This document shows, one piece after another, positions 152 through 46,014 of a DNA stretch of 52,497 bases. Each line of letters begins with the position of its first letter. The first letter of the stretch is position 1. Both the position numbers and the translations under genes were made by a program. Source of the stretch: an uncultured Anaerolineales bacterium (GTDB lineage: Bacteria; Chloroflexota; Anaerolineae; Anaerolineales; UBA6663). The stretch is taken from the NCBI GenBank assembly GCA_964443795.1, contig CAYUFY010000001.1, positions 1-52,497 of the forward strand, read 5' to 3'. The notes beneath the pieces were generated by a model. That model had not been told where the DNA came from. It did no database searches and was given only the letters and a program-made list of their open reading frames with translations.

Positions 152-496
152 ATGCTCAGAAACCAGACAAATCGGCTGTTACATAAGTGTGGCTGTCGGG
201 TATGTCAACAACACCCCTACAGTAGCGTTGCCCGCGAACATCGGGCCATCAATCGCATCATGCTCACGCTCAACGAAAAAAATCGGCGGCGGTTTGCGGG
301 GGTGTTGGCCCAGCAATGGGGACGCGGTGGGGTGCAGTGCGTCATTGAGATTACAGGTCTCAGTCGGAATACCATTGCACGTGGTGGTGATGAAACCCAA
401 CGCTTGGAGCCCAAGCCGGTTGCGTCGCGCATCCGGCAAATGGGGGGTGGACGGACGCTGGCTGAAAAAATTATCCCGGTTTGGAAGCGGCGCTGA
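152..496 (+). CDS. ISAzo13-family transposase, N-terminal HTH part (orfA, upstream of the frameshift)
   Basis: The peptide LNEKNRRRFAGVLAQQWGRGG...GLSRNTIARG...RIRQMGGGR is typical of ISAzo13 transposase N-termini. The frame ends shortly after an A6 run at 465-470. Confidence 0.75.
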   Translation: MLRNQTNRLLHKCGCRVCQQHPYSSVAREHRAINRIMLTLNEKNRRRFAGVLAQQWGRGGVQCVIEITGLSRNTIARGGDETQRLEPKPVASRIRQMGGGRTLAEKIIPVWKRR

Positions 497-1422: not shown

Positions 1423-1455
1423 AAACCGTCAAGTTATTTTTTAACGAACCCTTAG

Positions 1456-1660
1456 TGAGGCATACGCCCCCCGCTCCTGGATGCCGTTTTTCGCGTTCAG
1501 GAGCGGAGGTTAGCATGAGTCTCACCCCCCGGCCGCCTCTCACCATGACGATAGGGCTGTCATCGGGAGAGGGGGAGTCATGTGACTTAGTGAGGCATAT
1601 TCCCCCCGCTCCTGAACGCTGTTTTTCGCGTTCAGGAGCGGGGGGCCGGGGGGGTGAGGC
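1456..1660. repeat. Tandem GC-rich hairpin repeat units (rest of unit 1, then unit 2)
   Basis: Unit 2 contains a perfect 18-bp stem, CCCCCCGCTCCTGAACGC (1602-1619) with GCGTTCAGGAGCGGGGGG (1628-1645) and loop TGTTTTTC. Unit 1 (about 1468-1510) is a degenerate copy. The GGCCGGGGGGTGAG motif occurs in both orientations. Confidence 0.85.
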
Positions 1661-4258: not shown

Positions 4259-4262
4259 AGCC

Positions 4263-4332
4263 CACTGATAACTGCTCACTGATGACTGTTCACCAAATTA
4301 CTAATCACTAATTACCAATCCCCTAATCACTC
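4263..4332. repeat. Intergenic heptamer-periodic tract (about 10 units)
   Basis: CACTGAT AACTGCT CACTGAT GACTGTT CACCAAA TTACTAA TCACTAA TTACCAA TCCCCTA ATCACTC. The composition is AT-rich in a GC-rich genome. Confidence 0.8.
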
Positions 4333-4334
4333 CC

Positions 4335-4934
4335 ATGTCCCTCACACCCCTCGGCCCTATCGTCCGCCTCCAAATCCAACAGACCAAACTCAAAATCGGC
4401 GACAAGCCCAATCGGCGCTACGACCCTGCCGGTATCCTCTCTGTCCCCGAAATGATTCTCACCCCGCGCGGCGCCGAAACCCGCCTTGCCAACGGTGATC
4501 CCTTCCTCGATCAGCATCACATGGATCGCGCCGACACGCACAACATCAATGGCACCAACAACCTCTCGGTGAGCTTCACCTCCCACTACGCCGCCATCCG
4601 CGCCGAGTTCGGCGACCAACCGCACCTCTTCGATGGGTGCGCCGGAGAAAACATCCTCATCGAAACTTCTCAACACCTCACCGAAGCCATGCTCGCCGAC
4701 GGTGTCTATATCCAAACTGCCAGCGCGCCCGACCCCATCCGCCTTCATCAAGTCATCAATGCTCCGCCCTGTCGCCCCTTCAGCGGCTACGTCCTGGGCG
4801 GCACCGAGGCCTCGGTCAAAGAAACCCTGCAATTCCTTAATCAGGGCATCCGTGGGTTCTACTGCACCCTCGCGCATGTCAGCCCCATCACCCTTCGCGT
4901 CGGCGACCTCGCCCTCATCTCTACCGGAGCCTAA
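4335..4934 (+). CDS. MOSC-domain-like protein (putative)
   Basis: FDGCAGENILIE...L..G..I......IRLHQVINAPPCRPF resembles the MOSC beta-barrel with its conserved Cys. The call rests on motif recognition only. Confidence 0.5.
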   Translation: MSLTPLGPIVRLQIQQTKLKIGDKPNRRYDPAGILSVPEMILTPRGAETRLANGDPFLDQHHMDRADTHNINGTNNLSVSFTSHYAAIRAEFGDQPHLFDGCAGENILIETSQHLTEAMLADGVYIQTASAPDPIRLHQVINAPPCRPFSGYVLGGTEASVKETLQFLNQGIRGFYCTLAHVSPITLRVGDLALISTGA

Positions 4935-4935
4935 T

Positions 4936-6297
4936 ATGCAACGCCTCATTTTGTTTTTGATGATTTGCGCCCTCGCGCTGGCGGCGTGCGGCGCCCCCGC
5001 GACGACTGCGCCCCCCGAGCCGACTCGTTTACCCCAACCGACTCAAGCGCCCCCCACCGCGCCGCCCCCCTCCCCAACGGCTGGTCCGCCAACTTTAACC
5101 AGCGCCCCCGCGGCCTCGCCCATCCCCAGCGATACCCCGGCCCCCAACACCGTTCCTACCACCGCGCCAGCTACTGACCCCATCACCCACCTCAGCGCGG
5201 GCACGGCCATCACCGTCACCGACATTCACATGCTGGATGCGACCACCGGCTGGGCCATTGGCGGCCTCGTCCTTGGCGACCACATCTTCACCACCAAAAA
5301 TGGCGGCCAAACCTGGCGCGATGTCACCCCGCCCGAACCCGCCGCCGCCCCCGAAACCCCGAACGCCACCGTGGGTTACTTCATGGATACGAACACGGCG
5401 TGGGTCGTCTACGGTAACTTCAACGGCGGCCAAACCTCAGCCAGCGTTTGGCGCACCACCGATGGCGGCGCGACCTGGCTCCCCGGCGCTCATTTATATT
5501 GGGAAGAAATTGGTGACTACTTTGACCCCACCGACATTCAATTCCTCGACTCCCAAACCGGCTATGTCCTGGTCCATTTGGGGGTGGGCATGATGCACGA
5601 TTATGTCGCGCTCTACTTCACCCCCGATGGCGGCGCGAGTTGGGCGCGCGTGGTTGATCCCACCGTCGCCAACCTCACCATGAGTTGTGAAAAGACCGGC
5701 GTGGTCTTTGCGGACGCGCAACATGGCCTGATCACCGGCGATTGTCATGGGGTAGCCCCCGGCGTTTTACTACAAGTGACTAATGACGGTGGCGCGACCT
5801 GGTCGAACCCCGAACTCGCCCCGCCCGCCGCCAACCCCACGCTCTTCACCGACCAGAACATCGGTTGCGGCACCTATAACCCCGCGCTCTTCGGCCAAAC
5901 CGGCGCGCTCGTCGTGCGCTGTTCCTTCTTCACCGCCGACCCCATCCGCAGTGAGTCCTACCTCTACACCACCACCGATGGTGGCCAGACGTGGGCGCTT
6001 TCAGCCACCGCCTTGCCCATGGGTTCCGCCTCCGTGACATTCCTCAACGCCACCACCGCCTGGGCACAATCCACCGCCGACCCCAACAATCCCACTGCCC
6101 CCCTCGACATCTACCAAACCCTCGACAGCGGCGCGAAGTGGACCAAAGTCGGCACGGCCACCTGGAGCGGTATCTTCAACTTCATCAACGCCCAAACCGG
6201 CTGGGCCGTCGCCCAAGCAGGCGAATCTTTGGCGCTCGTCTCCACCGCCAATGCAGGCAAAAAATGGAGCCTGCTCAAGCCGCAAGTGGGGCCGTAG
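4936..6297 (+). CDS. Lipoprotein with BNR/Ycf48-like beta-propeller repeats
   Basis: Lipobox LALAAC|G after MQRLILFLMIC, then a Pro/Thr-rich linker. Repeated (D/N)GG(Q/A)(T/S)W motifs: GGQTW, DGGATW, DGGASW, DGGATW, DGGQTW, SGAKW, AGKKW. The annotated longer ORF from 4633 overlaps the previous gene. Confidence 0.75.
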   Translation: MQRLILFLMICALALAACGAPATTAPPEPTRLPQPTQAPPTAPPPSPTAGPPTLTSAPAASPIPSDTPAPNTVPTTAPATDPITHLSAGTAITVTDIHMLDATTGWAIGGLVLGDHIFTTKNGGQTWRDVTPPEPAAAPETPNATVGYFMDTNTAWVVYGNFNGGQTSASVWRTTDGGATWLPGAHLYWEEIGDYFDPTDIQFLDSQTGYVLVHLGVGMMHDYVALYFTPDGGASWARVVDPTVANLTMSCEKTGVVFADAQHGLITGDCHGVAPGVLLQVTNDGGATWSNPELAPPAANPTLFTDQNIGCGTYNPALFGQTGALVVRCSFFTADPIRSESYLYTTTDGGQTWALSATALPMGSASVTFLNATTAWAQSTADPNNPTAPLDIYQTLDSGAKWTKVGTATWSGIFNFINAQTGWAVAQAGESLALVSTANAGKKWSLLKPQVGP

Positions 6298-6330
6298 CAA
6301 ACTATCCGCTGGCAACACGGTGAACCAAAT

Positions 6331-6368
6331 AAAAAGCCGCGCAGGTGAGTCTGCGCGGCTTTTGTTTT
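6331..6368. terminator. Bidirectional rho-independent terminator between convergent genes
   Basis: An A-tract, then stem AGCCGCGCAG (6335-6344) with CTGCGCGGCT (6351-6360) and loop GTGAGT, then TTTGTTTT. Confidence 0.8.
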
Positions 6369-6514
6369 CTACTGCAGTTTGAGTTGTACTGTATGTTGTA
6401 GCCTAACGTTCCGCGTCGTTTGCGGAGCAAAATCCACTGCACGCGGGGGTTGGGCGCGCCATAATCCGGAAATAATCGCAATGTCCCTAACTACTCGACC
6501 GCCTGACCACCCAC

Positions 6515-6829
6515 CTAATACGCCGTCCAGCCCGCCTTTAACTCCACATCAAACTTCCCACTCTGCACTTCCAGTTCATCCACCACGCCCACCGTGGCGA
6601 GGTCAATGGGGACGAACTTGACCCCGGGCAGAGCCAGCGAGGCCTCGCGGGCGCGCACCATCACCACCAGATCACCCGGCCCGGCGTGGACGGTGTCGGC
6701 GGTCACTTGCACCCGCCCCACCGGTTCCAGTTTTTTATTGAGCGGCTGAACCGTGAGCAGTTTAACGCCGTCGAGGTCGGGGTATTTGAGCGTGCAAACG
6801 GCGGAACCAAGGATGCGACCGAGGAGCAT
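6515..6829 (-). CDS. BMC-P pentameric vertex protein (EutN/CcmL family)
   Basis: MLLGRILGSAVCT.K.P.L.G.KLL.VQPL......G....A.D.V.AG.GD.V is typical of EutN/CcmL. Confidence 0.85.
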   Translation of the reverse strand: MLLGRILGSAVCTLKYPDLDGVKLLTVQPLNKKLEPVGRVQVTADTVHAGPGDLVVMVRAREASLALPGVKFVPIDLATVGVVDELEVQSGKFDVELKAGWTAY

Positions 6830-6830
6830 T

Positions 6831-6895
6831 GGGTGATTTGGTTATTGAGTTATTGGGTCATTGAGCCAATGACCCAATAGCCCAATCGCGCTCTA
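6831..6895. repeat. AT-rich heptamer-based hairpin in a BMC intergenic spacer
   Basis: 12-bp stem: ATTGGGTCATTG (6852-6863) with CAATGACCCAAT (6867-6878), loop AGC. Confidence 0.85.
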
Positions 6896-7180
6896 TCACT
6901 TCAAGTTTTGCACCACGCGTGTTACCACCGCGTCCAGCAATTTCGCGTCCACTTCACTGCCGAGACGGGCGAGGACGGCGGCTTTGACGCGGTGGATGAG
7001 TTCGGCGGTGGCCGCGTCGGCGGGGTGGGCGGCGCTCGGGCGGGTGAGGCGCAGACCGTGCTTGAGCGCCAACTCGCGCCCCACGTCGGTCAGCACCACG
7101 TCGTCGTTAATCTCCAGCGCGGTCACGCCCCGGTCGAGCAGGTTTTGAATGTCACGTTCGGTGTAGAAGGTTTTAGCCAT
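6896..7180 (-). CDS. Small BMC-locus protein of unknown function with a C-terminal encapsulation-peptide-like helix
   Basis: 94 aa. The N-terminal motif FYTERDIQNLL..G...L.I..D.VLTDVGRELALKHGL recalls short N-terminal modules seen in BMC-associated enzymes. The C-terminus LLDAVVTRVVQNLK is amphipathic. Confidence 0.6.
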   Translation of the reverse strand: MAKTFYTERDIQNLLDRGVTALEINDDVVLTDVGRELALKHGLRLTRPSAAHPADAATAELIHRVKAAVLARLGSEVDAKLLDAVVTRVVQNLK

Positions 7181-7270
7181 AAAGTCGTCCTTCGATTGGC
7201 ACGGGGGCGGGGGAGCAAGGGAGCAGGGGAGATTTTTCTCTCGCGCTCCCCTGCCCCCCGGCTCCGCTGC

Positions 7271-7900
7271 TTATTTTCCAGCCTGCCCTTCCAACTCCTC
7301 AATCGCCTTCACCGCCGCATTGCGCGCGGTGACAATTTCGGCCTCGGAGCCAGAGAGCCACATCCGGCCAAAGCGCCCAACCGACGAGACGTGCAGGATT
7401 TTGATACTCGCGCCTTTCTCCGCTTCGTTGCAGGCGTAGTTGATATAGGCCGCTGGCGCGCATTCCAGAATCAACATGGTTTCGCCGGGGACGAGCATGG
7501 AGCCGCGCCGGAAGCGGTTGAGCAACTGCGCCTGATACGGGTCCACATTTGTAATAATCTGCACCGAGGCGATGATGGGCTTGATGCGGTCTTGGATGGA
7601 TAACCCCAGCCGCTCTAACACCACGCGCCCGGCCTCCAGCACTTCGGCCTGCGATTTGGAGTGGACTTCAAACATGCCGAATTCGCGCTCGACGAGTTGC
7701 GCGCCCGGGCGGGCCTCGGTGGCCTTGACGGCGATATCCACCAACCGGAAGGCTTCGTTGCCCGGCGCGACCTCGACATACAGCGAGGCCATACCCTCGG
7801 TGGGCAAGTCGCCCTGGGTAATCGTGCCCACGAATGCTGCATATTGTGGTTGCATCCGGTCGAGATAAGAATAAACACGAAGTTGGAATTGGTCGGCCAT
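7271..7900 (-). CDS. BMC-T tandem-domain shell protein (CsoS1D/CcmP-like, permuted)
   Basis: 209 aa, consistent with two BMC domains. QLRVYSYLDRMQPQYAAFVGT...VEREFGMFEVHS...IITNVDPYQAQLLNR.RRGSML..GE resembles the double-stacking BMC-T class. Confidence 0.75.
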   Translation of the reverse strand: MADQFQLRVYSYLDRMQPQYAAFVGTITQGDLPTEGMASLYVEVAPGNEAFRLVDIAVKATEARPGAQLVEREFGMFEVHSKSQAEVLEAGRVVLERLGLSIQDRIKPIIASVQIITNVDPYQAQLLNRFRRGSMLVPGETMLILECAPAAYINYACNEAEKGASIKILHVSSVGRFGRMWLSGSEAEIVTARNAAVKAIEELEGQAGK

Positions 7901-7920
7901 GAATAAACTCCCAAAGGCAA

Positions 7921-7981
7921 ACTCTAAATTTCAAACTTCAAACGCTGATTGATTTTGAAATTTGAGATTTGAAGTTTGAAA
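7921..7981. repeat. AT-rich heptamer-based palindrome in a BMC intergenic spacer
   Basis: TCAAACTTCAAA (7931-7942) pairs with TTTGAAGTTTGA (7968-7979). AAATTTCAAA (7926-7935) pairs with TTTGAAATTT (7954-7963). Confidence 0.8.
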
Positions 7982-8797
7982 TTAATTGTGCATCGCAATC
8001 CCTAACGGCGTAATAAACAACGGGTTGCCGGGGAGTTGCGTCTTTACCCCGGTAATTTCTTCGATAACGGCGGCCATGCCCGGAAAGGCGCAGGTGCCGC
8101 CGACGAGGTAAATGGTCTCCACCGGGTGGTCGGCGATGTGCCGCCGGACAATGGTGCCAACTTTTTCCATCACCGGGCGGATGACTGGGAACAACGCCGT
8201 TTGTTGCGCCGGGTCTTTCTTGAGCGTCTCGGCCCGCTCAAAGGTGATGTTTTTGGCCCCGGCGATGACGAGCGAGAAATGGGTGCCGCCGGTTGCTTCA
8301 TCGGCAGTATATATCACTTGCCCGTCGCGCAAAACTGCCACGCCGGTCGTTCCGCCGCCCACATCCACAATTGCGCCGTCGCGGATTTGCAGGACATTGT
8401 TGGCGGCGGTGGGTTCGTCCACCAGCCCAGTGCAGTCCAGCCCGGCGGCGTGTAACACGTTGGCCGTGGCCCGCACTTCGGCTTGCGGCACCCCTGGCGG
8501 GTAACCCGAGGCCCCCGTCACCAGTTCCAAGCCCAGGCGTTCTTCCACCCGGCGCTTCAATTGCCGCAATAATTCCACCGCGCCCACAAAATCCACCACC
8601 AAACCATCGCGCACGACTTGCGCGAATTGATACGCCCCGCCGATGGGTTGATAGTGTTCATCGAGCACCATCAGCACGGTGTAGGCCGTGCCGAGGTCCA
8701 CGCCGACATGCACCGGGCCGCGATACTGGCCGTTGCGGTGTTCCCCGGCCATGATGCTGTCGGTGAGGGTGAGGAGTTGAGCGAGCTGAGCATTCAT
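7982..8797 (-). CDS. eutJ: EutJ-like actin/Hsp70-fold ATPase (BMC-associated chaperone)
   Basis: VGVDLGTAYTV, DVGGGTTGVAV, EATGGTHF and YLVGGTCAFPG motifs; 271 aa. Confidence 0.8.
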   Translation of the reverse strand: MNAQLAQLLTLTDSIMAGEHRNGQYRGPVHVGVDLGTAYTVLMVLDEHYQPIGGAYQFAQVVRDGLVVDFVGAVELLRQLKRRVEERLGLELVTGASGYPPGVPQAEVRATANVLHAAGLDCTGLVDEPTAANNVLQIRDGAIVDVGGGTTGVAVLRDGQVIYTADEATGGTHFSLVIAGAKNITFERAETLKKDPAQQTALFPVIRPVMEKVGTIVRRHIADHPVETIYLVGGTCAFPGMAAVIEEITGVKTQLPGNPLFITPLGIAMHN

Positions 8798-8802
8798 CGG
8801 GA

Positions 8803-10047
8803 TCAGTTTTCCACTGGCACTTGGACAATCTGCTGTTTGCGAAGCAGGAAGTTTACGGCCAGCACCAACGGCACCAAGGTCGCCGCCAGACTGGTATAAG
8901 TCATGAGCGCATATCCAAAAGCCGCAAAGACGGCACCGCTGCCGAGGTTGCCCACCGCCGAACTCAAGGCCACCAGCAAATCCATCGCGCCTTGCATCCG
9001 GCCCCGCTCGGCTAATGTGAGCACATCAGTGAGCAGGGTGCCGCCCGCCACATAGCAAAAATTCCAGCCCATGCCCAACAGGAACAGCGCCACCCCCATC
9101 GGCACGACATCTGGTGAGAGCGGCGCGACGAGGCAGGCCACGATGAGGATGCCGGCCCCGGCCACGATGATTTGCGCGCGCCCAAACCGATCCACCAATT
9201 TGCCTGAGAAGAGCGACGGGCCGAACATGCCAATGGTGTGGAACATGATGACATAGCCGATATCGTCGAGGTTGTGACCGTGCCCTTTCATGTGCAGGGA
9301 GGTGATGGCCATGATCATCACCATGACCAACTGACCGAGAGCCATGGCGGCGATGGCCAGTTGGATGCCGGGCAGTCTGAGGAGCGCGGGGATGGAACGC
9401 ACCGGGCCGGTGGCCGCGTGCGGCTCCTCGGGGGCGAGTTCACGCCCGATATCGCGCGGGTCGGGGCGCAGGAAGGTGAAGATGAGTGCCCCGCCGAGGA
9501 TGAAGAGCCCCATGCTGGCGAACCACGGCCCGACGAGCGGATTGACTTCAAGGGATTCGGCCCAGCGCCCCATGGGGCCGACCAGGTTGGGGCCGAGAAT
9601 GGCGCCCACGGTGCCCCCGAGCACCACCAAACTGATGGCGCTCCCCCGCTCGGCGGGCAGGTGCATTTCGGCGGCGGCGTAGCGCCCCAAATCGCTAAAG
9701 CCTTGGGCCACGCCCATCAAGATAAACCCGAGGCAGAAGAGGCCGAAGGAATGGTTGAGGATGGCGACCCCGCAAATGAGCGCGCCCACACTCCCGAACC
9801 CAAAACCCAGCGTCAGCCCCGGCCGCCGCCCGACCCGTTCCATAAGCCGCGCGGCGGGGTAAGCCGCGAGGGCATTGCCCAGTAAGTAGATTGCGCCCGG
9901 CACTCCGGCCAGCGCCTTCTGGCCGCTGAGTTCAGCGCCCACCAGGGTGCCAATGGTGGCGCCCGCAATGTAACCGGCCGAAGCCAAACTGCGGCTGAAG
10001 AATAACACCCAGGTGAGACGACTTCGGTGGGCATGAGCAGTGGGCAT
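8803..10047 (-). CDS. MFS transporter
   Basis: About 12 predicted hydrophobic helices, an MFS loop motif (RLMERVGRRPG) and 414 aa. Confidence 0.8.
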   Translation of the reverse strand: MPTAHAHRSRLTWVLFFSRSLASAGYIAGATIGTLVGAELSGQKALAGVPGAIYLLGNALAAYPAARLMERVGRRPGLTLGFGFGSVGALICGVAILNHSFGLFCLGFILMGVAQGFSDLGRYAAAEMHLPAERGSAISLVVLGGTVGAILGPNLVGPMGRWAESLEVNPLVGPWFASMGLFILGGALIFTFLRPDPRDIGRELAPEEPHAATGPVRSIPALLRLPGIQLAIAAMALGQLVMVMIMAITSLHMKGHGHNLDDIGYVIMFHTIGMFGPSLFSGKLVDRFGRAQIIVAGAGILIVACLVAPLSPDVVPMGVALFLLGMGWNFCYVAGGTLLTDVLTLAERGRMQGAMDLLVALSSAVGNLGSGAVFAAFGYALMTYTSLAATLVPLVLAVNFLLRKQQIVQVPVEN

Positions 10048-10094
10048 GAATTCTCCTCAGAGGTTGTTTCTTAAAGGCTACCTATCTATACAAT

Positions 10095-10181
10095 GTCATG
10101 CTGAGCGAAGCGAAGCATCGCTACGGTGGCTCTGTTTTGCGCTTATCCAAGGTAGCGACCCTTCGCTTCGCTCAGGGTGAC
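10095..10181. repeat. Long REP-like inverted repeat (35-nt arms)
   Basis: GTCATGCTGAGCGAAGCGAAGCATCGCTACGGTGG (10095-10129) pairs, with a few mismatches, with CCAAGGTAGCGACCCTTCGCTTCGCTCAGGGTGAC (10147-10181). Confidence 0.85.
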
Positions 10182-10253
10182 AAGCCTTAAGAGCGACTTA
10201 AGAAACACTCTCTCAAGTGGGTGGGCTAAACCGCACCGCTGGTACAAACAAGA

Positions 10254-10277
10254 GCGCCGGGGTTAAGACCCCGGCGC
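10254..10277 (-). terminator. Hairpin downstream of the receiver gene (possible terminator)
   Basis: GCGCCGGGG-TTAAGA-CCCCGGCGC. On the minus strand it is followed by TCTTGTTTGT. Confidence 0.45.
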
Positions 10278-10303
10278 ACGGGCAAGCAGGGCTGGGCAAC
10301 CGC

Positions 10304-10948
10304 TCAACGTGGGGTGGGGAACAATCTTTCCAGGCGTTCGCAGATGAGCCGCAGGGTGCGCCATTCGCGGCGGGCGCAGAAAATCTCGGCGAGCCGCGCC
10401 AGCAGGTCGGGGTCAGCGTCCGGGCGGGCGGCGTAATCGGCGTAGGCCCGCGCGGCTTCGTCGTCCATGCGGCTGGTGCGCAAATAGGCGCGGGCGAGTT
10501 GCGACAGTCGCTCGGTCTTCTCGGTTTCAATGGCGGTGTTTTTGTTTTTGGCTTCCTCGGCGTACAGGCGGACGCGCTCCAGGGCTTGCAGGAATTCCTC
10601 GCCGCTGAAGGGCTTGACCAGATACTCCCGCACCCCGGCGGCCATGGCTTTGCGCAACATCTCGCGGTCGCCTTCCGATGACATGATCATGCACACGGTG
10701 GCCGGGCTGACTTCGGCAATGGTGCGGATGGCGGTTAGGCCATCCAGACGCGGCATGTTGATATCCATCAGGGCCACATCGGGTTGATGTTGCCGCGCCA
10801 TTTCCACCGCCTCGGCGCCGTCGCGCGCCACGGCCACCACCTGAATCCCCTCTTCGAAGATCAGGATGGCATGGATGCTTTTGCGGAATTCGGCTGAATC
10901 ATCCGCAATGAGAACGCGTATAGGAGCAGACATACTAAACAAGCCCAA
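10304..10948 (-). CDS. Response-regulator receiver protein with a helical C-terminal domain and no recognisable DNA-binding domain
   Basis: IRVLIADD...DVALMDINMPRLDG...SSEGD...A...GV.EYLVKPF. The C-terminal ~80 aa are helical and TPR-like. An alternative start lies at 10933. Confidence 0.8.
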   Translation of the reverse strand: MGLFSMSAPIRVLIADDSAEFRKSIHAILIFEEGIQVVAVARDGAEAVEMARQHQPDVALMDINMPRLDGLTAIRTIAEVSPATVCMIMSSEGDREMLRKAMAAGVREYLVKPFSGEEFLQALERVRLYAEEAKNKNTAIETEKTERLSQLARAYLRTSRMDDEAARAYADYAARPDADPDLLARLAEIFCARREWRTLRLICERLERLFPTPR

Positions 10949-11016
10949 AATCCCAATGACAAAATCCCAAAATCAGGCCATCGTTTGAGATTTGGAATTT
11001 GGGATTTGTGATTTTG
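10946..11016. repeat. AT-rich heptamer-based imperfect palindrome in a BMC intergenic spacer
   Basis: AAATCCC AATGACA AAATCCC AAAATCA ... GATTTGGAATTTGGGATTTGTGATTTTG. Confidence 0.8.
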
Positions 11017-11017
11017 A

Positions 11018-11335
11018 CTAACTGCTTTTGCCGCCGAACCCGCCCTTGCTGTTCTTGGGCAGGATCATTTCCACGTCTGAGTGCGGGCGCGGGATGACAT
11101 GGACGGACACGAGTTCACCCACGCGCTTGGCGGCGGCGGCCCCAGCGTCGGTGGCGGCTTTGACCGCGCCGACATCGCCGCGCACCATCACGGTGACAAA
11201 GCCACCGCCAACATACTCACTCCCGATGAGAGTGACATTGGCCGCTTTGACCATGGCATCGGCGGCTTCAATCGCGCCAATCAATCCTTTGGTCTCGACC
11301 ATTCCAAGCGCAATCATGGCGATATCTACGGGCAT
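11018..11335 (-). CDS. BMC-H hexameric shell protein (PduA/EutM-like)
   Basis: [27 protein letters not shown]......[21 protein letters not shown] is the canonical Pfam BMC domain. Confidence 0.9.
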
Positions 11336-11394
11336 GGCTTATTTCTCCTTAGGTTATTGTTGATATACAAGCAGGCATTAGTAAAGGGTAATTA

Positions 11395-12888
11395 CTAATT
11401 ACTTTTCAATTCGGCCAACACGCGGCGTACAATCTCGTCAATCTTCTCTGCTTCGGCGCCCACCGGGGGCCGGGCGGCGCGGCGCAGTTGGCTGGGGTCG
11501 TCGGTGGCGCCGGGCAGTAGCGCGGCCTCCGGCGGTGGGTTCAATTCGTAGGCCAGTCGCTTCACATTATACATATGATGCACGGTAATGTTGTCGCCCG
11601 TCATCGCGCCGCCGATCCCGCCGGGGCCGAGCGTCATGGAAGGCATCACGCCGGTGGTCATGCCGGTCGCGCCGAGTGTGCCCCAGGTGTTCACCAGAAT
11701 GCGGAACACCGGCTTCTCCAGCCCAAACCGCATAATGATTTGATCGTCCTGCGCGTGGATGACGAGCGAATGCCCGCGCCCACCGTAGTTGATGAGTTCG
11801 ATGCACTGCTCGCACCCGGCTTCCCAGCCATCGGCTTCGTACCAGCCGAGGACGGTGGTGAGTTTCTCGCCCGAGAGCGGTTCGGCCGGCCCGACGGCTT
11901 TGAGTTTGGCGACGAGAATCCGGGCCGAGGCGGGGACGCTGATCCCGCACGCTTGCGCCAGTTGTTGCGGACTCTGGCCGACCATGCGCGGGTTGATGAG
12001 CGGCCCATTGGGGAACAGCAACCCCGCGAGGGCGCGGGCCTGCGCGTCGTCCACAAAATACGCGCCCTCCGCCTTCATCAATTCTTCCAACTGTGCGGCG
12101 ATGGGGCGGTCGGCCACTACCGCCTGCTCGGTGGCGCAAATCACCGAATGGTCAAAGGCTTTGGAAGCGACGATGTATTTAGCGGCGCGCCGCAGGTCGG
12201 CGGACCGATCCACATACACCGGGACGTTGCCCGGGCCTACACCGTAAGCCGGTTTCCCGACCGAGTGCGCGGCCCGCACCATCTCGCTCCCGCCGGTGGC
12301 GAGGATGAGGGCTACATATTTATGCTTCATCAATTCTTGCGTACCGGGCAGGGTCACGAGGCTCATGCATCCCACCAGGCCCGGCGGCATGCCCGCCCGC
12401 ACACCCGCCTCGACCATGAGACGCGTGGTTTCCACACAGCACTTGGCCGCGGAGGGGTGGGGCGCGACGACAATGCCATTGCGCGCCTTAACCGCGATCA
12501 AAATCTTGAACATGGTGGTCGAGGTGGGGTTGGTGCTGGGGGTGAGCGCGGCCACTACGCCCATGGGCCAGGCGATGTCGTAAAGCTTTTTCTTGGGGTC
12601 GTGTTTCACCACGCCCACCGTGGGAATGTCTTTAATGGCGTCCCACAAAATTCTGGAGGAGAGGAGGTTCTTGAGGGTCTTGTGTTCCGGCACGCCATAG
12701 CCGGTTTCTTCGGCGGCCAGGCGCCCCAAGCGCTCAGCGGCGGCCGAGGCGGCCTCGGCCATGGCCTGACAAATGCGGTCTACCTCGGCTTGCGAGGCAT
12801 GGAGGAACTGCTTTTGGGCCTCGCGCGCGGCAACCGCGAGGGTGCGAGCTTCCTGGATGGATTGAAGGTCTTTGTCAAAATCGGCCAT
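11395..12888 (-). CDS. CoA-acylating aldehyde dehydrogenase (PduP/EutE family) with a C-terminal encapsulation-peptide-like extension
   Basis: Catalytic region KAFDHSVICATEQ; 497 aa. The C-terminal tail ...AEAEKIDEIVRRVLAELKSN is amphipathic. Confidence 0.85.
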   Translation of the reverse strand: MADFDKDLQSIQEARTLAVAAREAQKQFLHASQAEVDRICQAMAEAASAAAERLGRLAAEETGYGVPEHKTLKNLLSSRILWDAIKDIPTVGVVKHDPKKKLYDIAWPMGVVAALTPSTNPTSTTMFKILIAVKARNGIVVAPHPSAAKCCVETTRLMVEAGVRAGMPPGLVGCMSLVTLPGTQELMKHKYVALILATGGSEMVRAAHSVGKPAYGVGPGNVPVYVDRSADLRRAAKYIVASKAFDHSVICATEQAVVADRPIAAQLEELMKAEGAYFVDDAQARALAGLLFPNGPLINPRMVGQSPQQLAQACGISVPASARILVAKLKAVGPAEPLSGEKLTTVLGWYEADGWEAGCEQCIELINYGGRGHSLVIHAQDDQIIMRFGLEKPVFRILVNTWGTLGATGMTTGVMPSMTLGPGGIGGAMTGDNITVHHMYNVKRLAYELNPPPEAALLPGATDDPSQLRRAARPPVGAEAEKIDEIVRRVLAELKSN

Positions 12889-12967
12889 GCGTCACCGGTG
12901 ACTAAATAGGTTGGAAAAAGGTTGTAATAGTATACACAAGGCTATCAGTAGAGTCGAATGGTTGGGG

Positions 12968-13525
12968 TCAGGGCGTCTCGCGCAACTGGCAGGAGAATAA
13001 TTGGCCCGCCGGGCAAACGACTTCAACGGGTTGTTCGGTGCGGAGTTGGCCGGGGAGTTTTTGGTCGAGATTGATAAAGAGATGCCCTTGGCGGATGGAG
13101 ACTGCATATTGATCAATGTCATGTGGCGTCCAGGCAGAAGAGGGTTTTGGTGAGTATAACAACAACATCCCGGTGATGGTCCATTTGTAGCCCGAGCACG
13201 GGTCTTCAAACCGATTGTTTGTCGGAACCCAGACGTATTTGTAATGACACGGCCCGGCGTAACGATTAAACGCCACCACTTTGTCGGGCAAGCGGACGAT
13301 AACCAGTGAGATGGTGTTGCCGTTTGATCCGGTCACGCCTTGATACTGCGGTGCGTTGAGGGGAAAGTCATCAATCTCCCCCAGGTCAAAGATTTGCGGC
13401 GCGGGTAGCACGAACCAGAAAATGACTCCGGCCAGCGCAAGACACATAAGCGCCAATGTCGCGCCAAAAAAGTAATACGCGCCTTCGCGCCAGGTTACGG
13501 ATTGAGTCAAATGTGTGGCGGTCAT
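12968..13525 (-). CDS. Membrane-anchored protein with a degenerate Rieske-like motif; function unknown
   Basis: One N-terminal TM helix (YYFFGATLALMCLALAGVIFWFVL). The segment GPCHYKYVW-x10-DPCSGYKW aligns to the Rieske boxes CxHxGC...CxxH but lacks the second Cys and second His. Confidence 0.55.
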   Translation of the reverse strand: MTATHLTQSVTWREGAYYFFGATLALMCLALAGVIFWFVLPAPQIFDLGEIDDFPLNAPQYQGVTGSNGNTISLVIVRLPDKVVAFNRYAGPCHYKYVWVPTNNRFEDPCSGYKWTITGMLLLYSPKPSSAWTPHDIDQYAVSIRQGHLFINLDQKLPGQLRTEQPVEVVCPAGQLFSCQLRETP

Positions 13526-13550
13526 CTCAACACCGGCCCTTAGCTATCGG

Positions 13551-13841
13551 CTAAGATTTTCTAAATGTTACTTTCCCGCTGACCTCCAATGAATCAATCA
13601 CCGCCATGATCACCGCATCCACCGGGGTGTCTTTGGTGATGTTGGTTTGCCGGGCCGAGGAACCGGCGGCCACGAGGACGAGATCGCCCGTCCCGGCGTC
13701 CACCGAGTCCACGGCGACGTACGGTTTGCCGACGGGTTGGCCGCTTTCATCGGCTTCGCGGACGATGAGCAGTTTGCGGCCGACGAGTTTTTCATCTTTG
13801 ATAGTGGCGACGGTGGAGCCGATGACGCGTGCGATTTGCAT
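13551..13841 (-). CDS. BMC-P pentameric vertex protein (EutN/CcmL family)
   Basis: MQIARVIGSTVAT.K...L.G.KLLIV......G.......VA.D.V.AG.GD.VLV. The start is taken at MQIARV. Confidence 0.85.
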   Translation of the reverse strand: MQIARVIGSTVATIKDEKLVGRKLLIVREADESGQPVGKPYVAVDSVDAGTGDLVLVAAGSSARQTNITKDTPVDAVIMAVIDSLEVSGKVTFRKS

Positions 13842-13937
13842 GAGATGGCCTTTAGTGTTTTTCAACAGATGTAACTGATGTCGCAGATGATTTTGGATTT
13901 ATCACCCGGTAAATCCGTTCCATCCGTTGATGACGTT

Positions 13938-14237
13938 TCAAACTCGCCGCCGACCGTTGGTGGGGCGGGGCCGCGCGCTTGGTTTGCGTGCTTCCGCGCG
14001 GGCGCGGAGGGAAGCTTCGCGGCGCAAATCGGCTTCCGGGCCGAGCATCAATTCCAGTTGGTCGAGCGCCGCGTTATCATATTCCCGTTGGCCGCAAAAA
14101 TCGCACACCCACGCTGGGAAGTCGGGGATGGTGATGAATTGGCCTTCGAACCAGTGGGCAAAGACCACCGCGCGGGGTTGCAGGGTGCCGATCTGGCAAT
14201 GGGGGCAAACGAATTGCGGTAGTTCGCTGGGGAACAT
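13938..14237 (-). CDS. YgiT-type zinc-finger protein (MqsA N-domain-like) with a basic tail
   Basis: CPHCQIGTL...ITIPDFPAWVCDFCGQREYDNAALDQL. Its ATG at 14237 overlaps the TAA stop of deoC by 1 nt. The Arg-rich upstream part of the 185-aa ORF is an out-of-frame overlap with deoC. Confidence 0.7.
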   Translation of the reverse strand: MFPSELPQFVCPHCQIGTLQPRAVVFAHWFEGQFITIPDFPAWVCDFCGQREYDNAALDQLELMLGPEADLRREASLRARAEARKPSARPRPTNGRRRV

Positions 14238-15136
14238 TAGTATTTGCCTCCGGTGGCGGGCGCGGCCTCGCCCTGAATGATTTTGACGCCCGCGCTTGCG
14301 CCGAGGCGCGTGGCCCCGGCGGCCACGAAGGCTTCGGCGTCGGCTTTGGTGCGCACGCCCCCGGCGGCTTTCACGCCCATCCGCGGCCCGACGGTGCGGC
14401 GCATGAGGGCCACATCGGCCACGGTCGCGCCGCCCGAGGCAAAGCCGGTGGAGGTCTTGACGAAATCGGCGTGACATTCTTTGGAGATCAGACACGCGGC
14501 GATTTTTTCCTCGTCGGTGAGCAGGGCGGCTTCGATGATGACTTTGACGAGGACGGGCTTGGCGTGGCAGACGCGCACGACCGCGCGGATGTCGCGGGCG
14601 ACGTGTTCATAATCCTTGCTCTTGAGCGCGCCGATATTGATGACCATGTCAATTTCGGTGGCGCCCTGGTCAATGGCGAGTTGGGCTTCGTAGGCTTTCA
14701 CTTCGGGCGGGGTGGCGCCCAGCGGAAAACCCACGACTGTGCAGACAGCCACGTTGGAGCCTTTGAGTAGTTGCGCAGCCAGCGCCACATGGGTGGGGTT
14801 AACGCAGACGGCGGCGAAGTTGTGTTTACGCGCCTCGTAGCATAGTTGAGCAATCTGGTCGGGGGTGGCCTCGGGTTTGAGCAGGGTATGGTCTATGAGG
14901 GCGGCGAGGTTGGGGTTGGCCGGGGTGGCGCCCAGACCAGCGGCCAGCCGTTCGGCTCCGGCTTGCACGATCAGTTCCACTTTATCGCCGCAGTGACGGA
15001 TGCAGTGGCCTGCGCCACATTCCTCGGTGCAGGCGTCGGCGGCGGTCCCGCGCTGTTCTTCTTCGGCCAGCGCCAGCAGGACCTGGCGGGTGACGAGTTC
15101 AACAATTTTTTCGACAGTGTGTGAATCGGTGGGCAT
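14237..15136 (-). CDS. deoC: Deoxyribose-phosphate aldolase (DERA) with an N-terminal encapsulation-peptide-like helix and a Cys4 linker
   Basis: [11 protein letters not shown]...AAVCVNP...[10 protein letters not shown]...VKVIIE...[10 protein letters not shown]-terminus: [23 protein letters not shown], then [14 protein letters not shown]. The start at 15136 lies just after the upstream stop; the longer ORF reaching 15232 overlaps the previous gene. Confidence 0.85.
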
Positions 15137-15140
15137 GGGG

Positions 15141-15722
15141 TTAGTCGGCAAAGATATCGGTGACGGTGCAGGTAAAGCCGGGCAAGACCGCGGATTGAAT
15201 AGCGGCATCCTCTTCGTACAACTCTTCCGCATACTGACCCTCTCGCAACCGTAAAACTTCCACCGTTCGATCCCCGGGGCTGATAATCCAATATTCCGGG
15301 ACTTGAAAACGGGCGTAGAGGGCGCGTTTTATGACCCGATCAATCCGCATACTGCCGGGTGAGAGAATTTCAATCACCAAGTCAGGCGCACCGTGGAAGT
15401 TCTTTGGGGTGAAGCGCTCGCGATGTTCAGTGCTGGCGAAGATAATATCCGGTTGAACTATTTCGGTCTCAGATAAAACCACATCGAACGGCGCAAGTTG
15501 GACTTTCCCTTTTTGGGTTTGCCTTGCCCAAGCCCGCAAAAGCATATAGAGATTACCGAGAACAACCTGATGAAAATCAGTTGGACTGGGTGACATGATT
15601 TTTTCTCCCGCGATGATAGTGAAGTACTCGCCCGGGCGGGTCTCGCGTAAATAGCGCTCGTAATTCCAAGCGGCTTCGGTGGTGGGCCGGAGAGAGGGGA
15701 CACGCTCGATCATCAGTATCAC
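15141..15722 (-). CDS. Uma2-family (DUF820) putative endonuclease
   Basis: ...APFDVVL......VQPDIIF......[13 protein letters not shown]...D...K...Y....VPEYWII.P is the typical Uma2 signature. The gene lies between rpiB and deoC. Confidence 0.8.
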
Positions 15723-16288
15723 GCGGTCTTCAAAAAACGCTTCTCAATTTCAAGAACTTTATCCACGCGCTTTTGGTGGCGTCCGCCGCCAAAGGGGGTG
15801 GCGAGCCAGGTCTGCACGATTTGTTGGGCGAGGTTGACGCCAATCAATCCCGCGCCCAGGGTGAGCACGTTGGCATCGTTGTGCTCGCGGCTGTTGATGG
15901 CGGTGGCATGATCGTAGCACAGGGCGGCGCGCACGCCCGGCACTTTGTTGGCGGCCATGGCACTCCCAATGCCCGCGCCATCCACCACAATGCCGCGCCA
16001 GGCCTCGCCCGTACTCACCAGCCGCGCCACTGCGTAGGCCAGATCGGGATAATCCACAGCATCAGTGGAGTGCGTGCCACAGTCTACTACCGGATAACCC
16101 AGACTGGCAATAAATTCTTTGAGGATCTGTTTGAGGGCGAAGCCGCCGTGGTCCGCGCCCAAAGCGATGGGGCCGGAACCGGCGGGGGAGGCGCTCCGCG
16201 CGGCGGGCGCGGTCTGGCCCAGGGTGCGGTTAACAATGCGCTGTACGATCTCGCGCACTTCGGCTTCAGTCAGATCGCGGGCGGGCAT
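15719..16288 (-). CDS. rpiB: Ribose-5-phosphate isomerase B (RpiB/LacAB family) with an N-terminal encapsulation-peptide-like helix
   Basis: IALGADHGGFALK...G..V.D.G......DYPD.A..VA......G.G..I...G.G..MAANK..GVRAAL. N-terminus: MPARDLTEAEVREIVQRIVNRTL. The start is taken at 16288. Confidence 0.85.
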   Translation of the reverse strand: MPARDLTEAEVREIVQRIVNRTLGQTAPAARSASPAGSGPIALGADHGGFALKQILKEFIASLGYPVVDCGTHSTDAVDYPDLAYAVARLVSTGEAWRGIVVDGAGIGSAMAANKVPGVRAALCYDHATAINSREHNDANVLTLGAGLIGVNLAQQIVQTWLATPFGGGRHQKRVDKVLEIEKRFLKTA

Positions 16289-16292
16289 TGGG

Positions 16293-16976
16293 TTAGTGGG
16301 AGCTGGCGTAGGAGTAGTGCGGCACCAATCCCCAGTCTTTATCAAATGGGAAATAGACCAGCACGGCTTTGCCGATGATGTACTTGCGTTCCAGCGGTCC
16401 CCAACTGCGCGAGTCGGAGGAGCCATTGCGATTGTCGCCCATCACAAAATATTCGGTGGGGGTGAGCGTCCAGGCACCGCCCGAGAGGGGGGGGGCAGCG
16501 ATATAGGATTCCTGCAGGGGTTCGTTATTGACGGTTACCACGCCGCCGGAGATCGCCACCGTCTCACCCGGCAGGCCAATGACGCGCTTGATGAAATCCC
16601 GGTCAATAGCGAGCGGATAATTGAAGACGATGACATCGCCGCGTTGCGGTTCGCCCAGCATGTATGAAATTTTATCTACCAGCACATACTGGCCCGGATG
16701 CACGCTGGGTTCCATGCTGGTGCCCTCGACTTTGAAGCGGCCGGTGGCAAAATTCACGACGGCGTAGATGATGACGGTGAGGAGGACCGTTTCGAGAATT
16801 TCCCGCAGGAGGGCTTGCATGGAAGCCGAAACCGTTGGAGGACTCGCCTCCGACGCGGGCGCGAGTCCCAGGGGCGTGGTCGCAACCGAAGAAATTGGCT
16901 CCGCCGGGGGAGGGGGATTGGAAACAGCAGGGGCGGCTTCCGGCGAATCGGTCGGGGTGGTGGAAGTGAAAGACAA
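16293..16976 (-). CDS. lepB: Signal peptidase I
   Basis: GTSMEPS, GDVIVF, FIKRVIGLPGE and GDNRNGSSDSRSWGP motifs. Confidence 0.9.
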   Translation of the reverse strand: MSFTSTTPTDSPEAAPAVSNPPPPAEPISSVATTPLGLAPASEASPPTVSASMQALLREILETVLLTVIIYAVVNFATGRFKVEGTSMEPSVHPGQYVLVDKISYMLGEPQRGDVIVFNYPLAIDRDFIKRVIGLPGETVAISGGVVTVNNEPLQESYIAAPPLSGGAWTLTPTEYFVMGDNRNGSSDSRSWGPLERKYIIGKAVLVYFPFDKDWGLVPHYSYASSH

Positions 16977-17125
16977 AGCGAACTCCTAACCTACATTGAC
17001 TTACTTAAGATTATACGGCGGGTGCAAGGGGAATGGCAAACCCACTGGTTGGCTAGGTGAGATGAGCGGAGGGCGAATCAAAAATGCGGGCAACCCCAAG
17101 GGGCGCCCGACCGGAGCAGGGTGGG

Positions 17126-18499
17126 TCAATCGTTCTTTTTGCGGAAGCTGAGGCGCAACGGCGTGCCGAGGAAACTATATTCGGCGCGGATGCAGTTTTC
17201 GAGATACCGTTCGTAGGTGAAATGCACCAATTTGGTGTCGTTAACGTGGAAGAGAAACGTGGGCGGATCCACACGGACTTGAGAAGCGTAATTGATTTTA
17301 AGTTGTCGCCCGGCATGGCCCGGCGCGGGGTGGTGGGCCACGGCCTCGCGCACAATCCGATTCAAGTCGGAGGTGGGCACGCGCGAGAGGCGTTCTTCCT
17401 GGACTTGCAAGGCGAGGGGCAAAACTTGCTGGGCGCGCTGGCCGGTCTTGGCCGAGATGAATAGCACGGGCACGTAGTCCAGAAAATGCAGAGTCTCGCG
17501 GAGTTTGCGGGTGTATTCGGGGAGCGTGTGCTCATCTTTTTCCACGGCGTCCCACTTGTTGACGATCACGACCACGCTTTTCAATTCGTCGAGGATGTAG
17601 CCGGCCACATGCGCATCTTGCGCGGTGAATGGTTCGCTGGCATCCACGACCAGCAGGGCCACATCGGCGCGGCCAATGGCCCGGAGCGAGCGCAACACGC
17701 TCCACTGCTCCACGCCGGGGTCAATGTGCCCCCGGCGGCGGATGCCGGCGGTGTCAATCAGCACCACGGGGAGGCCATCATAGGTGAGTTGGGTGTCAAT
17801 CGCGTCGCGGGTGGTGCCGGGGATGGGGCTGACGATGGTCCGCTCTTCACCCAGTAACCGATTGAGCAGGGAGCTTTTGCCCACATTGGGCCGACCGACA
17901 ATGGCGATTTTCACCGCATCGGTCTCGGCCGTTTCCGTGAGGGGCGGCAGGGCCGCAATGACCGCATCCAGCAAGTCGCCAATGCCCGTGCCGTGCACGG
18001 CCGAGATGGCGATGGGTTCGCCCATGCCCAGTTCATAAAACTCCACGGCCTCTTCGCGGCGCTGAAAGTTTTCGGTTTTGTTGACGGCCAGCAACACCGG
18101 CGGGCTGAAAGAACCATCGGGCTGGCGGGTTTGGCGGCGGCGCAGAATATTGGCCACTTCCCGGTCGGCGGCGGTGACGCCGGCTTTGACCTCGGTCATG
18201 AAGATGACCACGTCGGCATCGGTGATGGCGATTTCAGCCTGGGCGCGGATATGTGGGATGAATTGGGCCGAATCTTCCGAGAGCGGGCTGTCGTCCTGAC
18301 CGCGCCGGGCGGGCGGCTCAATGCCGCCGGTATCCACAAGATCAAATTTAACCCCGTTCCATTCGGCTTCCGCTACGAGGCGGTCGCGCGTGGTGCCGGG
18401 GATGTCATCCACCACCGCCAACCGTTCGCCGGTGAGGCGGTTGAATAAGGAAGACTTGCCGACATTGGGCCGACCGACGATAGCGATAAGAGGTTTCAT
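17126..18499 (-). CDS. der: Ribosome-associated GTPase Der/EngA (two G domains plus KH-like)
   Basis: Two GRPNVGKSSL P-loops, DTGG/DTAG and NK.D motifs. The start is taken at MKPLIAIVG. Confidence 0.92.
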   Translation of the reverse strand: MKPLIAIVGRPNVGKSSLFNRLTGERLAVVDDIPGTTRDRLVAEAEWNGVKFDLVDTGGIEPPARRGQDDSPLSEDSAQFIPHIRAQAEIAITDADVVIFMTEVKAGVTAADREVANILRRRQTRQPDGSFSPPVLLAVNKTENFQRREEAVEFYELGMGEPIAISAVHGTGIGDLLDAVIAALPPLTETAETDAVKIAIVGRPNVGKSSLLNRLLGEERTIVSPIPGTTRDAIDTQLTYDGLPVVLIDTAGIRRRGHIDPGVEQWSVLRSLRAIGRADVALLVVDASEPFTAQDAHVAGYILDELKSVVVIVNKWDAVEKDEHTLPEYTRKLRETLHFLDYVPVLFISAKTGQRAQQVLPLALQVQEERLSRVPTSDLNRIVREAVAHHPAPGHAGRQLKINYASQVRVDPPTFLFHVNDTKLVHFTYERYLENCIRAEYSFLGTPLRLSFRKKND

Positions 18500-25158: not shown

Positions 25159-25160
25159 GG

Positions 25161-40458: not shown

Positions 40459-40491
40459 AACAATACTCCTGGCAAATGATACGGCTTACCG

Positions 40492-46011: not shown

Positions 46012-46014
46012 GGT

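Follow-up and report, generated by a model that had tools for sequence, protein, structure and literature searches.

At positions 6515-16288 of contig CAYUFY010000001.1 (assembly GCA_964443795.1) from an uncultured Anaerolineales bacterium, of which 52,497 nt were analysed (hereafter called the window), there is a gene cluster for a bacterial microcompartment (BMC). Within 9.8 kb, and with every gene on the minus strand, the cluster contains genes encoding the shell proteins BMC-H, BMC-Tdp and two copies of BMC-P, a deoxyribose-phosphate aldolase (DERA), a protein similar to ribose-5-phosphate isomerase B (RpiB), a CoA-acylating aldehyde dehydrogenase (AldDH), a EutJ-type protein and a protein of 94 amino acids, hereafter called p94. 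It also contains genes for a YgiT-type zinc finger (ZnR), a response regulator (RR), an MFS transporter, a Uma2-family protein and a membrane-anchored protein of 185 amino acids (Table 1). A preliminary description of this DNA had placed the shell genes, the enzymes and the additional genes at these positions on one strand, and matches to Pfam, to NCBIfam (TIGR/NF models) and to the PDB bore this out. The region is very probably a sugar-phosphate-utilisation (SPU) microcompartment locus of the SPU6 subtype of Anaerolineae (Chloroflexota), in which resident and passenger genes are interleaved with those of the organelle.

Table 1 Features of the SPU6-type locus and its borders, in the order in which the minus strand is read
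Feature	Coordinates	Strand	Evidence
lepB signal peptidase (flanking gene)	16976-16293	-	
RpiB-like protein (SPU 'RPI')	15719..16288	-	PF02502 E 1.9e-53; TIGR01120 158 bits vs cut-off 139
Uma2-family putative endonuclease, between RpiB and DERA	15141..15722	-	PF05685 E 1.9e-34
DERA, SPU signature enzyme	14237..15136	-	TIGR00126 deoC 290 bits vs cut-off 117; PF01791
YgiT-type zinc finger with Arg-rich tail (ZnR)	13938..14237	-	TIGR03831 36.9 bits vs 20.2
BMC-P copy a (pentamer vertex protein)	13551..13841	-	PF03319 E 1.9e-29
185-amino-acid membrane-anchored Rieske-fold protein	12968..13525	-	Transmembrane helix and Rieske fold without cluster ligands
CoA-acylating acetaldehyde dehydrogenase (AldDH)	11395..12888	-	PF00171; TIGR02518 554 bits, under the 620-bit cut-off
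BMC-H, single hexamer shell protein	11018..11335	-	PF00936 E 2e-29
Receiver-only response regulator (RR)	10304..10948	-	PF00072 E 1.4e-28
GC-rich terminator-like hairpin just 3' of the RR gene	10254..10277	-	10-bp stem, 9 GC pairs, T-rich tail
MFS transporter	8803..10047	-	PF07690 (MFS_1) E 1.6e-44
EutJ-type actin/Hsp70-fold protein	7982..8797	-	NF011660 361 bits vs 182
BMC-Tdp, CcmP/CsoS1D-type double-stacking pseudohexamer with gated pore	7271..7900	-	PDB matches
94-amino-acid SPU6 core protein (p94)	6896..7180	-	No Pfam/NCBIfam match; similar to EutQ N-terminus
BMC-P copy b, last gene of the locus	6515..6829	-	PF03319 E 1.3e-20
Strong bidirectional terminator-like hairpin, 3' end of the locus	6332..6363	both	13-14 bp stem, T tails on both strands

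The SPU6 subtype was described by Sutter et al. (2021, Nat Commun 12:3809, Suppl. Data 2), who found it only in Chloroflexi. Its core consists of an AldDH with a C-terminal encapsulation peptide (EP), proteins of the families pfam01791 and pfam02502, and a short EutQ-like protein of ~130 amino acids without a Pfam match. EutJ is present in some loci, the shell genes are one BMC-H, a BMC-Tdp and a BMC-P triplet, and a phosphotransacylase (PTAC) is not listed. The window comes from the same host group (Anaerolineae, Chloroflexi), has PF00936 (BMC-H) and PF03319 (BMC-P) genes clustered with the enzymes, and combines one single-domain PF00936 gene with one BMC-Tdp, without a PTAC. The preliminary description had recognised an SPU locus built on DERA, RpiB and AldDH, in agreement with the gene families and the published SPU6 gene set, and had called the gene complement non-canonical; the core set is, rather, the canonical one, and of the SPU6 features compared the BMC-P triplet was the one not matched, since two BMC-P genes were found.

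As expected of an SPU locus, a deoC-type DERA with the Asp/Lys/Lys catalytic set and an N-terminal extension of ~70 residues carrying an amphipathic helix was found together with an acylating AldDH. When delimited with TIGR00126, the deoC domain of the DERA covers residues 77-288 and follows an extension of ~75 residues, the amphipathic helix being read from the sequence at residues 7-24. The catalytic residues are intact: D163, K227 and K256 take the places of E. coli D102, K167 and K201. The RpiB-type protein, encoded beside DERA apart from the Uma2 insertion, also has a predicted N-terminal EP: its domain starts at residue 41, after an extension of ~40 residues with an amphipathic EP-like helix (LTEAEVREIVQRIVNRTL). 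Asp103 occupies the position of the E. coli Cys66, and His136, corresponding to His99, is conserved. The RpiB-like protein is thus probably inactive on ribose-5-phosphate and a packaging partner of DERA. The AldDH has the catalytic cysteine motif VICATEQ (read from the sequence) and starts straight at the catalytic domain (MADFDKDLQSIQEAR), with a Pro-rich linker followed by an EP-like helix (AEKIDEIVRRVLAELK) at its C-terminus, the protein ending in AEKIDEIVRRVLAELKSN. The same C-terminal tail occurs in the relatives L018 and L078, and a C-terminal EP on AldDH is what SPU6 leads one to expect.

These features can be compared with those of the SPU6 model locus of Chloroflexi bacterium GWB2_54_36, studied by Dwyer, Sutter & Kerfeld (2024, Commun Biol 7:1562). 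The SPU6 DERA without its N-terminal extension cleaved deoxyribose-5-phosphate, the ribose-5-phosphate isomerase activity of the SPU6 RPI was negligible because its catalytic Cys66 is replaced by Asp, as in all SPU RPIs, and a DERA-RPI complex was shown for SPU6. The view of the preliminary description that the class has not been characterised biochemically is therefore superseded.

The shell genes were identified with differing ease. Searches with family models, as proposed in the preliminary description, confirmed BMC-H and BMC-P as well as DeoC, RpiB and Aldedh, whereas the Pfam BMC match of the BMC-T protein (7271-7900) was sub-threshold (17 bits, cut-off 24.5). The latter nevertheless aligns over its full length with solved BMC-Tdp structures: CcmP 4ht5 (E 1.3e-64, residues 6-206), HO-5816 (1e-55) and CsoS1D (7e-50). 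A Glu-Arg pair in the window protein aligns with a Glu-Arg pair of CcmP, which is presumably the gating pair of CcmP/CsoS1D. BMC-H orthologues with 81-97% identity were found in 75 of 80 related loci, and orthologues of BMC-P copy a in SPU6 relatives are 84-97% identical.

EutJ and p94 are conserved accessories, EutJ being found in 59/80 related loci and p94 orthologues in 46. The p94 protein matched the N-terminus of the EutQ of related EUT3-type loci by hhalign over 51 residues (probability 95.3%, E 2.4e-8), and its C-terminus has EP-like amphipathic helices, so that p94, short and without a Pfam match, agrees with what is described for SPU6 as a 'short ~130 aa EutQ-like protein'. The relation is visible only between profiles; BLASTP of p94 itself with a full-length EutQ gave no significant match (E 2.3). 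The sole match of p94 in a PDB profile search, the designed protein Tako8, was dismissed as a repeat artefact, and this search found no structural homologue. In L016 (628-2394), a p94 orthologue continues in frame into the AldDH gene with no stop between them, which is either a natural fusion or an assembly error.

A first set of related loci (labels of the form L001) was collected with the AldDH as query over one genome per GTDB species. The search gave 210 relatives, of which the best 80 loci were kept, and the window proteins were mapped onto these for gene presence and order. Nearly all of the 80 are from metagenome-assembled genomes of Chloroflexota/Anaerolineae, with 68-85% AldDH identity; one is labelled Syntrophothermus. 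The closest AldDH is 85% identical among the 80 GTDB loci and 90% identical in the metagenome contig L082. At least 17 loci share the order RpiB-DERA-BMC-P-AldDH-BMC-H...EutJ-Tdp-p94-BMC-P, and the housekeeping genes TPR-CdaA-YbbR-Der-LepB are syntenic between the window and the relatives among the 80. Around near-identical AldDH, BMC-H, EutJ, Tdp and p94 genes, the relatives have two main architectures: type A, with RpiB-DERA upstream (SPU-type), and type B, with EutA-EutB-EutC-EutL upstream and EutQ and a cobalamin adenosyltransferase downstream (EUT3 or 'SPU6-like', verified with Pfam on L001). The closest AldDH relatives are divided between SPU6-type and EUT3-type loci, whose relationship was described by Sutter et al. 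(2021).

A further arrangement, BMC-H-EutJ-Tdp-p94-(BMC-P)-AldDH-BMC-H, was observed in L003, L013, L015, L017 and L019. It has two BMC-H genes, and neither DERA nor Eut genes lie within reach. This arrangement may correspond to the SPU6 'duplicate set lacking some enzymes'.

Pfam scans of the plausible open reading frames (ORFs) of the 52.5-kb window gave no PduL (PF06130), Pta (PF01515), iron-type alcohol dehydrogenase (ADH) or acetate kinase, in accordance with the preliminary description, which had seen no PduL, ADH or AckA there. The only acetyl-CoA/acetate enzyme in the window is an AMP-forming acetyl-CoA synthetase (Acs, 43322-45298), 27 kb from the locus; it adjoins a GNAT acetyltransferase gene (region 43322-46014, minus strand), with no evidence of linkage to the microcompartment. 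With neither PTAC nor ADH nor PduS encoded, exchange of acetyl-CoA/CoA and NADH/NAD+ with the cytosol would be required. The preliminary description had treated the cofactor recycling as an unexplained oddity of this locus, but lack of a PTAC is the norm in SPU6. According to Dwyer et al. (2024), a BMC-Tdp is typically encoded where an SPU subtype lacks PTAC, and exit of acetyl-CoA through its large gated pore was proposed, though not demonstrated, by the same authors.

The inferred encapsulation, metabolite routing and cofactor exchange would proceed as follows. Judging from the identity of the shell genes, BMC-H would form the facets, the CcmP-like BMC-Tdp would provide a large gated pore and BMC-P would cap the vertices. 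Cargo would be recruited by EP-like amphipathic helices, N-terminal on DERA and the RpiB-like protein and C-terminal on AldDH, as the sequences and the literature suggest. DERA, with its catalytic residues in place and an orthologue of published activity, would cleave deoxyribose-5-phosphate, yielding glyceraldehyde-3-phosphate plus acetaldehyde, and AldDH, by its family and cysteine motif, would trap the acetaldehyde as acetyl-CoA with formation of NADH. The RpiB-like protein, with its Asp substitution and in line with the published complex, would serve as a non-catalytic packaging partner that binds DERA. CoA/acetyl-CoA and NAD+/NADH would exchange with the cytosol, probably via the Tdp pore as hypothesised in the literature.

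The organelle genes of the window form three blocks interleaved among the resident ZnR, RR and MFS genes. Orthologues of these three are similarly interleaved in about ten 'extended' SPU6 loci, the loci so named being L002, L004, L010, L012, L014, L018, L020, L021, L027, L032, L081, L082 and L086, whereas the compact SPU6 loci L065, L070, L077 and L079 are without RR and MFS. In L065 the entire operon is situated between Der and LepB, and the YgiT gene follows LepB, outside the operon. A search for YgiT homologues and their gene context led to L088 (JGI 3300037422, 190-9164), in which PolA-TPR-CdaA-YbbR-Der-LepB is followed by YgiT (61%), RR (60%) and MFS (59%) without any microcompartment gene. 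L087 (JGI 3300069122, 5610-8191), like L088 a close Anaerolineae relative with this PolA-TPR-CdaA-YbbR-Der-LepB context, has LepB followed by a short DERA (236 amino acids), YgiT and RR, without shell genes, AldDH or RpiB. The flanking housekeeping genes of these BMC-free relatives are as similar to those of the window as the ones flanking BMC-bearing loci (Der 77%), and L087 and L088 may have captured either the loss of the organelle or the stage before its acquisition. ZnR, RR and MFS occur in the same order in the BMC-free L088 and are therefore residents beside lepB, retained also where the organelle is missing.

The RR orthologues are 48-79% identical in extended SPU6 loci, and the window RR probably starts at an ATG near 10933. 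Its C-terminus is a helical TPR-like domain with no DNA-binding domain; an ANTAR (EutV-like) or DNA-binding regulator was considered and rejected, since nothing beyond the receiver domain and a weak TPR_7 match was found. The RR is a resident gene, possibly co-opted as a regulator. Its helical module (YLxxLxxAYLRxGRMDDEA...RLAExFxARRxWxxLRxxCxRL) corresponds to no Pfam family, and in L081 (12495-14167) the regulator is duplicated, one copy having two C-terminal repeats of the module where the window RR has one. For the MFS transporter, no NCBIfam subfamily matched at the cut-off that would indicate a substrate, the best matches being generic efflux or PunC-like ones far below threshold.

In L025 and L027, too, an intact Uma2 orthologue lies between RpiB and DERA. 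At this position, L082 (524-709, 61 amino acids) and L086 (5933-6094, 53 amino acids) have in-frame internal-deletion remnants, whose matches to Uma2 cover residues 4-46 (E 2e-16 and 2e-13) and 176-193, about 130 residues having been lost. This reduction to remnants identifies Uma2 as an old, dispensable passenger and not a part of the organelle. Other passengers were seen in the operons of relatives: a Uma2 gene between BMC-P and AldDH in L078, DUF2442 and HicA in L018, and 3.6 kb of unrelated genes in L021.

The protein of 185 amino acids had no match in the 80 GTDB loci. Among 5.8 billion proteins it has five homologue clusters with 44-60% identity, and all three homologues that were looked up are encoded at the same place, between BMC-P and AldDH of extended SPU6 loci. 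Among its carriers is the closest relative of the window, L082 (BMC-P 97%, in addition to the AldDH identity given above). An initial suspicion that the ORF was spurious, based on its lower GC3 and its absence from the 80 loci, was dropped once the conserved homologues were found. The family has an N-terminal transmembrane helix after a Tat-like TRRE[F/A]AYYFF motif (TWRE in the window), and an invariant motif WVPxNxRFEDPCSGxKW, in which DPCS stands in place of the CPCH of Rieske box 2; the Cys of box 1 varies among the six homologues compared. When the family profile was searched against the PDB, every match was to a Rieske protein (E 0.018-1), and the 50 best Foldseek matches of an AF2 model (pLDDT 75.9) were likewise all Rieske domains, led by 9rk4_A (E 3.8e-5, TM 0.70). 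The preliminary description as a membrane-anchored degenerate Rieske-like protein was thus accurate as to the transmembrane helix, the fold and box 2. As the CxH...CxxH boxes of Rieske [2Fe-2S] proteins were not found in it, the protein is Rieske-like in fold and not a cluster-binding member.

By its Tat-like N-terminal anchor, the domain of this protein is probably extracytoplasmic. A role as an outlet for electrons from luminal NADH was considered and rejected; with the cluster ligands missing and the domain probably on the outer side, the protein could be neither an electron outlet nor a tether of the shell. No remnant of the gene was found in the 427-bp gap between BMC-P and AldDH of L086. 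All carriers belong to one sub-lineage, so that common descent alone may account for the shared position. The protein is a lineage-restricted SPU6 accessory.

The preliminary description had regarded the locus as the best candidate in the window for an uncharacterised organelle variant. In that case the MFS, RR, Rieske-like, YgiT and Uma2 genes would be functional parts of it, providing import, regulation and a redox or membrane coupling in place of recycling by PTAC and ADH. The same-strand, tightly spaced interleaving of ZnR, RR and MFS in about ten related loci could be read in this way, as could the five clusters of Rieske-like homologues, of which the three looked up were all inside SPU6 loci. 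However, L088 retains ZnR-RR-MFS without organelle genes and L087 retains ZnR-RR beside no more than a short DERA, the compact SPU6 loci do without RR and MFS, Uma2 is decaying in sister loci, and the passengers of relatives differ. The Rieske-like protein has lost its ligands and is predicted to be extracytoplasmic, which would leave it without electron carriage or contact with the shell, and the lack of PTAC and ADH is normal for SPU6. A distinct variant of this kind is accordingly quite unlikely. A more limited proposal, that a narrow Anaerolineae lineage acquired the Rieske-fold protein and co-opted ZnR, the orphan RR and MFS, coupling the organelle to the cell membrane, e.g. for sensing or import of a deoxyribose substrate, is also considered unlikely.

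A decaying, non-functional SPU6 operon, broken up by insertions and losses and heading towards the BMC-free state of L087 and L088, would account for the missing third BMC-P, for the insertion of Uma2 and the Rieske-like gene, and for the loss of a gene present in relatives between RR and MFS (described below) with a terminator-like hairpin in its place; relatives with some or all of the organelle genes gone do exist. The core ORFs are, however, all complete, and their catalytic residues and EP-like extensions are preserved; compared with L082 the core proteins are 79-97% identical (AldDH 90, DERA 88, RpiB 88, BMC-P 97, BMC-H 97, RR 79), a sign of purifying selection. In other systems (HO shell), H, T and a single P type are also known to assemble into a minimal shell. 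Decay of the locus thus appears very improbable.

Assignment to SPU6 has points against it as well. To our knowledge, the physiological substrate has not been demonstrated in vivo for any SPU subtype, and the encapsulation peptides proposed for DERA, the RpiB-like protein and AldDH are predictions from sequence. The absence of PduL, Pta, ADH and a third BMC-P applies to the 52-kb window and not to the whole genome. Only two BMC-P genes are present in the window in place of a triplet: the third BMC-P type occurs in the compact relatives L065, L070, L078 and L079, and tblastn of the 52-kb window with those of L065, L070 and L079 as queries found only the two known BMC-P genes. The co-orientation and tight spacing of ZnR, RR and MFS with organelle genes in ~10 loci, furthermore, leaves room for their co-option.

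The locus is, on this evidence, a clear member of an already catalogued and partly characterised subtype and not a new kind of organelle. Mildly new are the SPU6-restricted, cluster-less Rieske-fold protein and the presence of two BMC-P genes rather than the expected three. The window adds one more well-preserved example of SPU6 and presents an Anaerolineae microcompartment operon at a fixed site (Der-LepB) which, in close relatives, is interleaved with residents, invaded by passengers or lost. For annotation, the lesson is that genes located between shell genes should not be assumed to be parts of the organelle. The questions that the locus raises are those of SPU6 as a whole, namely the recycling of CoA and NAD+ in the absence of PTAC and ADH and the roles of the inactive RPI, of EutJ and of the EutQ-like protein.

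Scans for promoters and terminators gave counts near those of shuffled sequence, and only two strong hairpins stood out. One is placed between BMC-P copy b and a convergent BNR-repeat gene; the other lies in the gap between RR and MFS (10048-10303, 257 bp), suggesting at least two transcription units. In L018, L027, L032, L082 and L086 a gene of 263 amino acids without a Pfam match (x263), absent from the window, is found between RR and MFS. The best promoter-like match is upstream of lepB (17039-17010). Regulatory RNAs in or near the locus were rejected, as Rfam gave only sub-threshold chance matches in 5500-17500 at E<=0.1; none reached the gathering score in the whole window, and no tRNAs were found in it.

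Elsewhere in the window, an ISAzo13-family DDE transposase (481-1422, plus strand; PF07592, E 2e-113) and a DEAD-box helicase with an MrfA Zn-binding domain and a weak HNH match (1661-4258, plus strand) suggest a mobile or repair-related patch 2-6 kb past the 3' end of the locus. At 24500-26000, between a 2OG-Fe(II) oxygenase gene and polA, there is a patch with a GC content of 0.55 (otherwise ~0.61) with small minus-strand ORFs: a RimJ-like GNAT (assigned by eye, 24577-25158), an ORF of 78 amino acids and one of 131. A Tad/Flp-pilus-like set at 38980-43296 (minus strand) comprises a T2SSE secretion ATPase, a receiver-AAA_31 protein (TadZ/CpaE-like) and a zinc-ribbon histidine kinase; it has no relation to the microcompartment. 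A CHASE2-adenylate/guanylate cyclase at 49335-51773 (minus strand) has three inserted LysM domains, which is an unusual combination, and its gene adjoins one for a LysM protein (51774-52496, minus strand).

Among known systems, the Rieske subunits of cytochrome b6f/bc-type complexes (9rk4, 8hn2, 4h0l chain D) resemble the 185-amino-acid protein in having a transmembrane anchor, a Tat-like motif, seen in its homologues, and the Rieske beta-fold (Foldseek TM 0.6-0.7). They differ from it in that the window protein has no cluster ligands and no partner cytochrome genes nearby, and the examined contexts of its homologues are all within SPU6 loci. The SPU1, SPU4, SPU7, PDU and EUT systems likewise combine an aldehyde-generating signature enzyme and an acylating AldDH in a BMC-H/BMC-P shell. 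Unlike the window, they have an encapsulated PduL-type PTAC, often with ADH or PduS, for CoA and NAD+ recycling, and an N-terminal EP on AldDH, and SPU1, SPU4 and SPU7 are without BMC-Tdp. The EUT3 or 'SPU6-like' loci of Chloroflexi, Actinobacteria and Spirochaetes, to which many of the closest AldDH relatives belong, have similar AldDH (73-85%), BMC-H, EutJ, BMC-Tdp and p94 in the same order; apart from the verified L001, the others show the same BMC-P...AldDH spacing. In EUT3 loci, EutA/B/C, EutL, full-length EutQ and a cobalamin adenosyltransferase, none of which is present in the window, replace RpiB and DERA. Compared with the SPU6 model, the window has two BMC-P genes and not a triplet, lacks the GntR/UTRA regulator of the model locus, has its organelle genes in three blocks split by the YgiT finger, RR and MFS, and carries two insertions, the intact Uma2 and the Rieske-fold membrane protein without a cluster. 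With that model it shares the Chloroflexi host, the RPI-DERA-AldDH core, the C-terminal EP of AldDH, the long N-terminal extension of DERA, the EP and the Cys to Asp substitution of RPI, the short EutQ-like protein, the single BMC-H with a BMC-Tdp, EutJ, which occurs in some SPU6 loci, and the lack of a PTAC.

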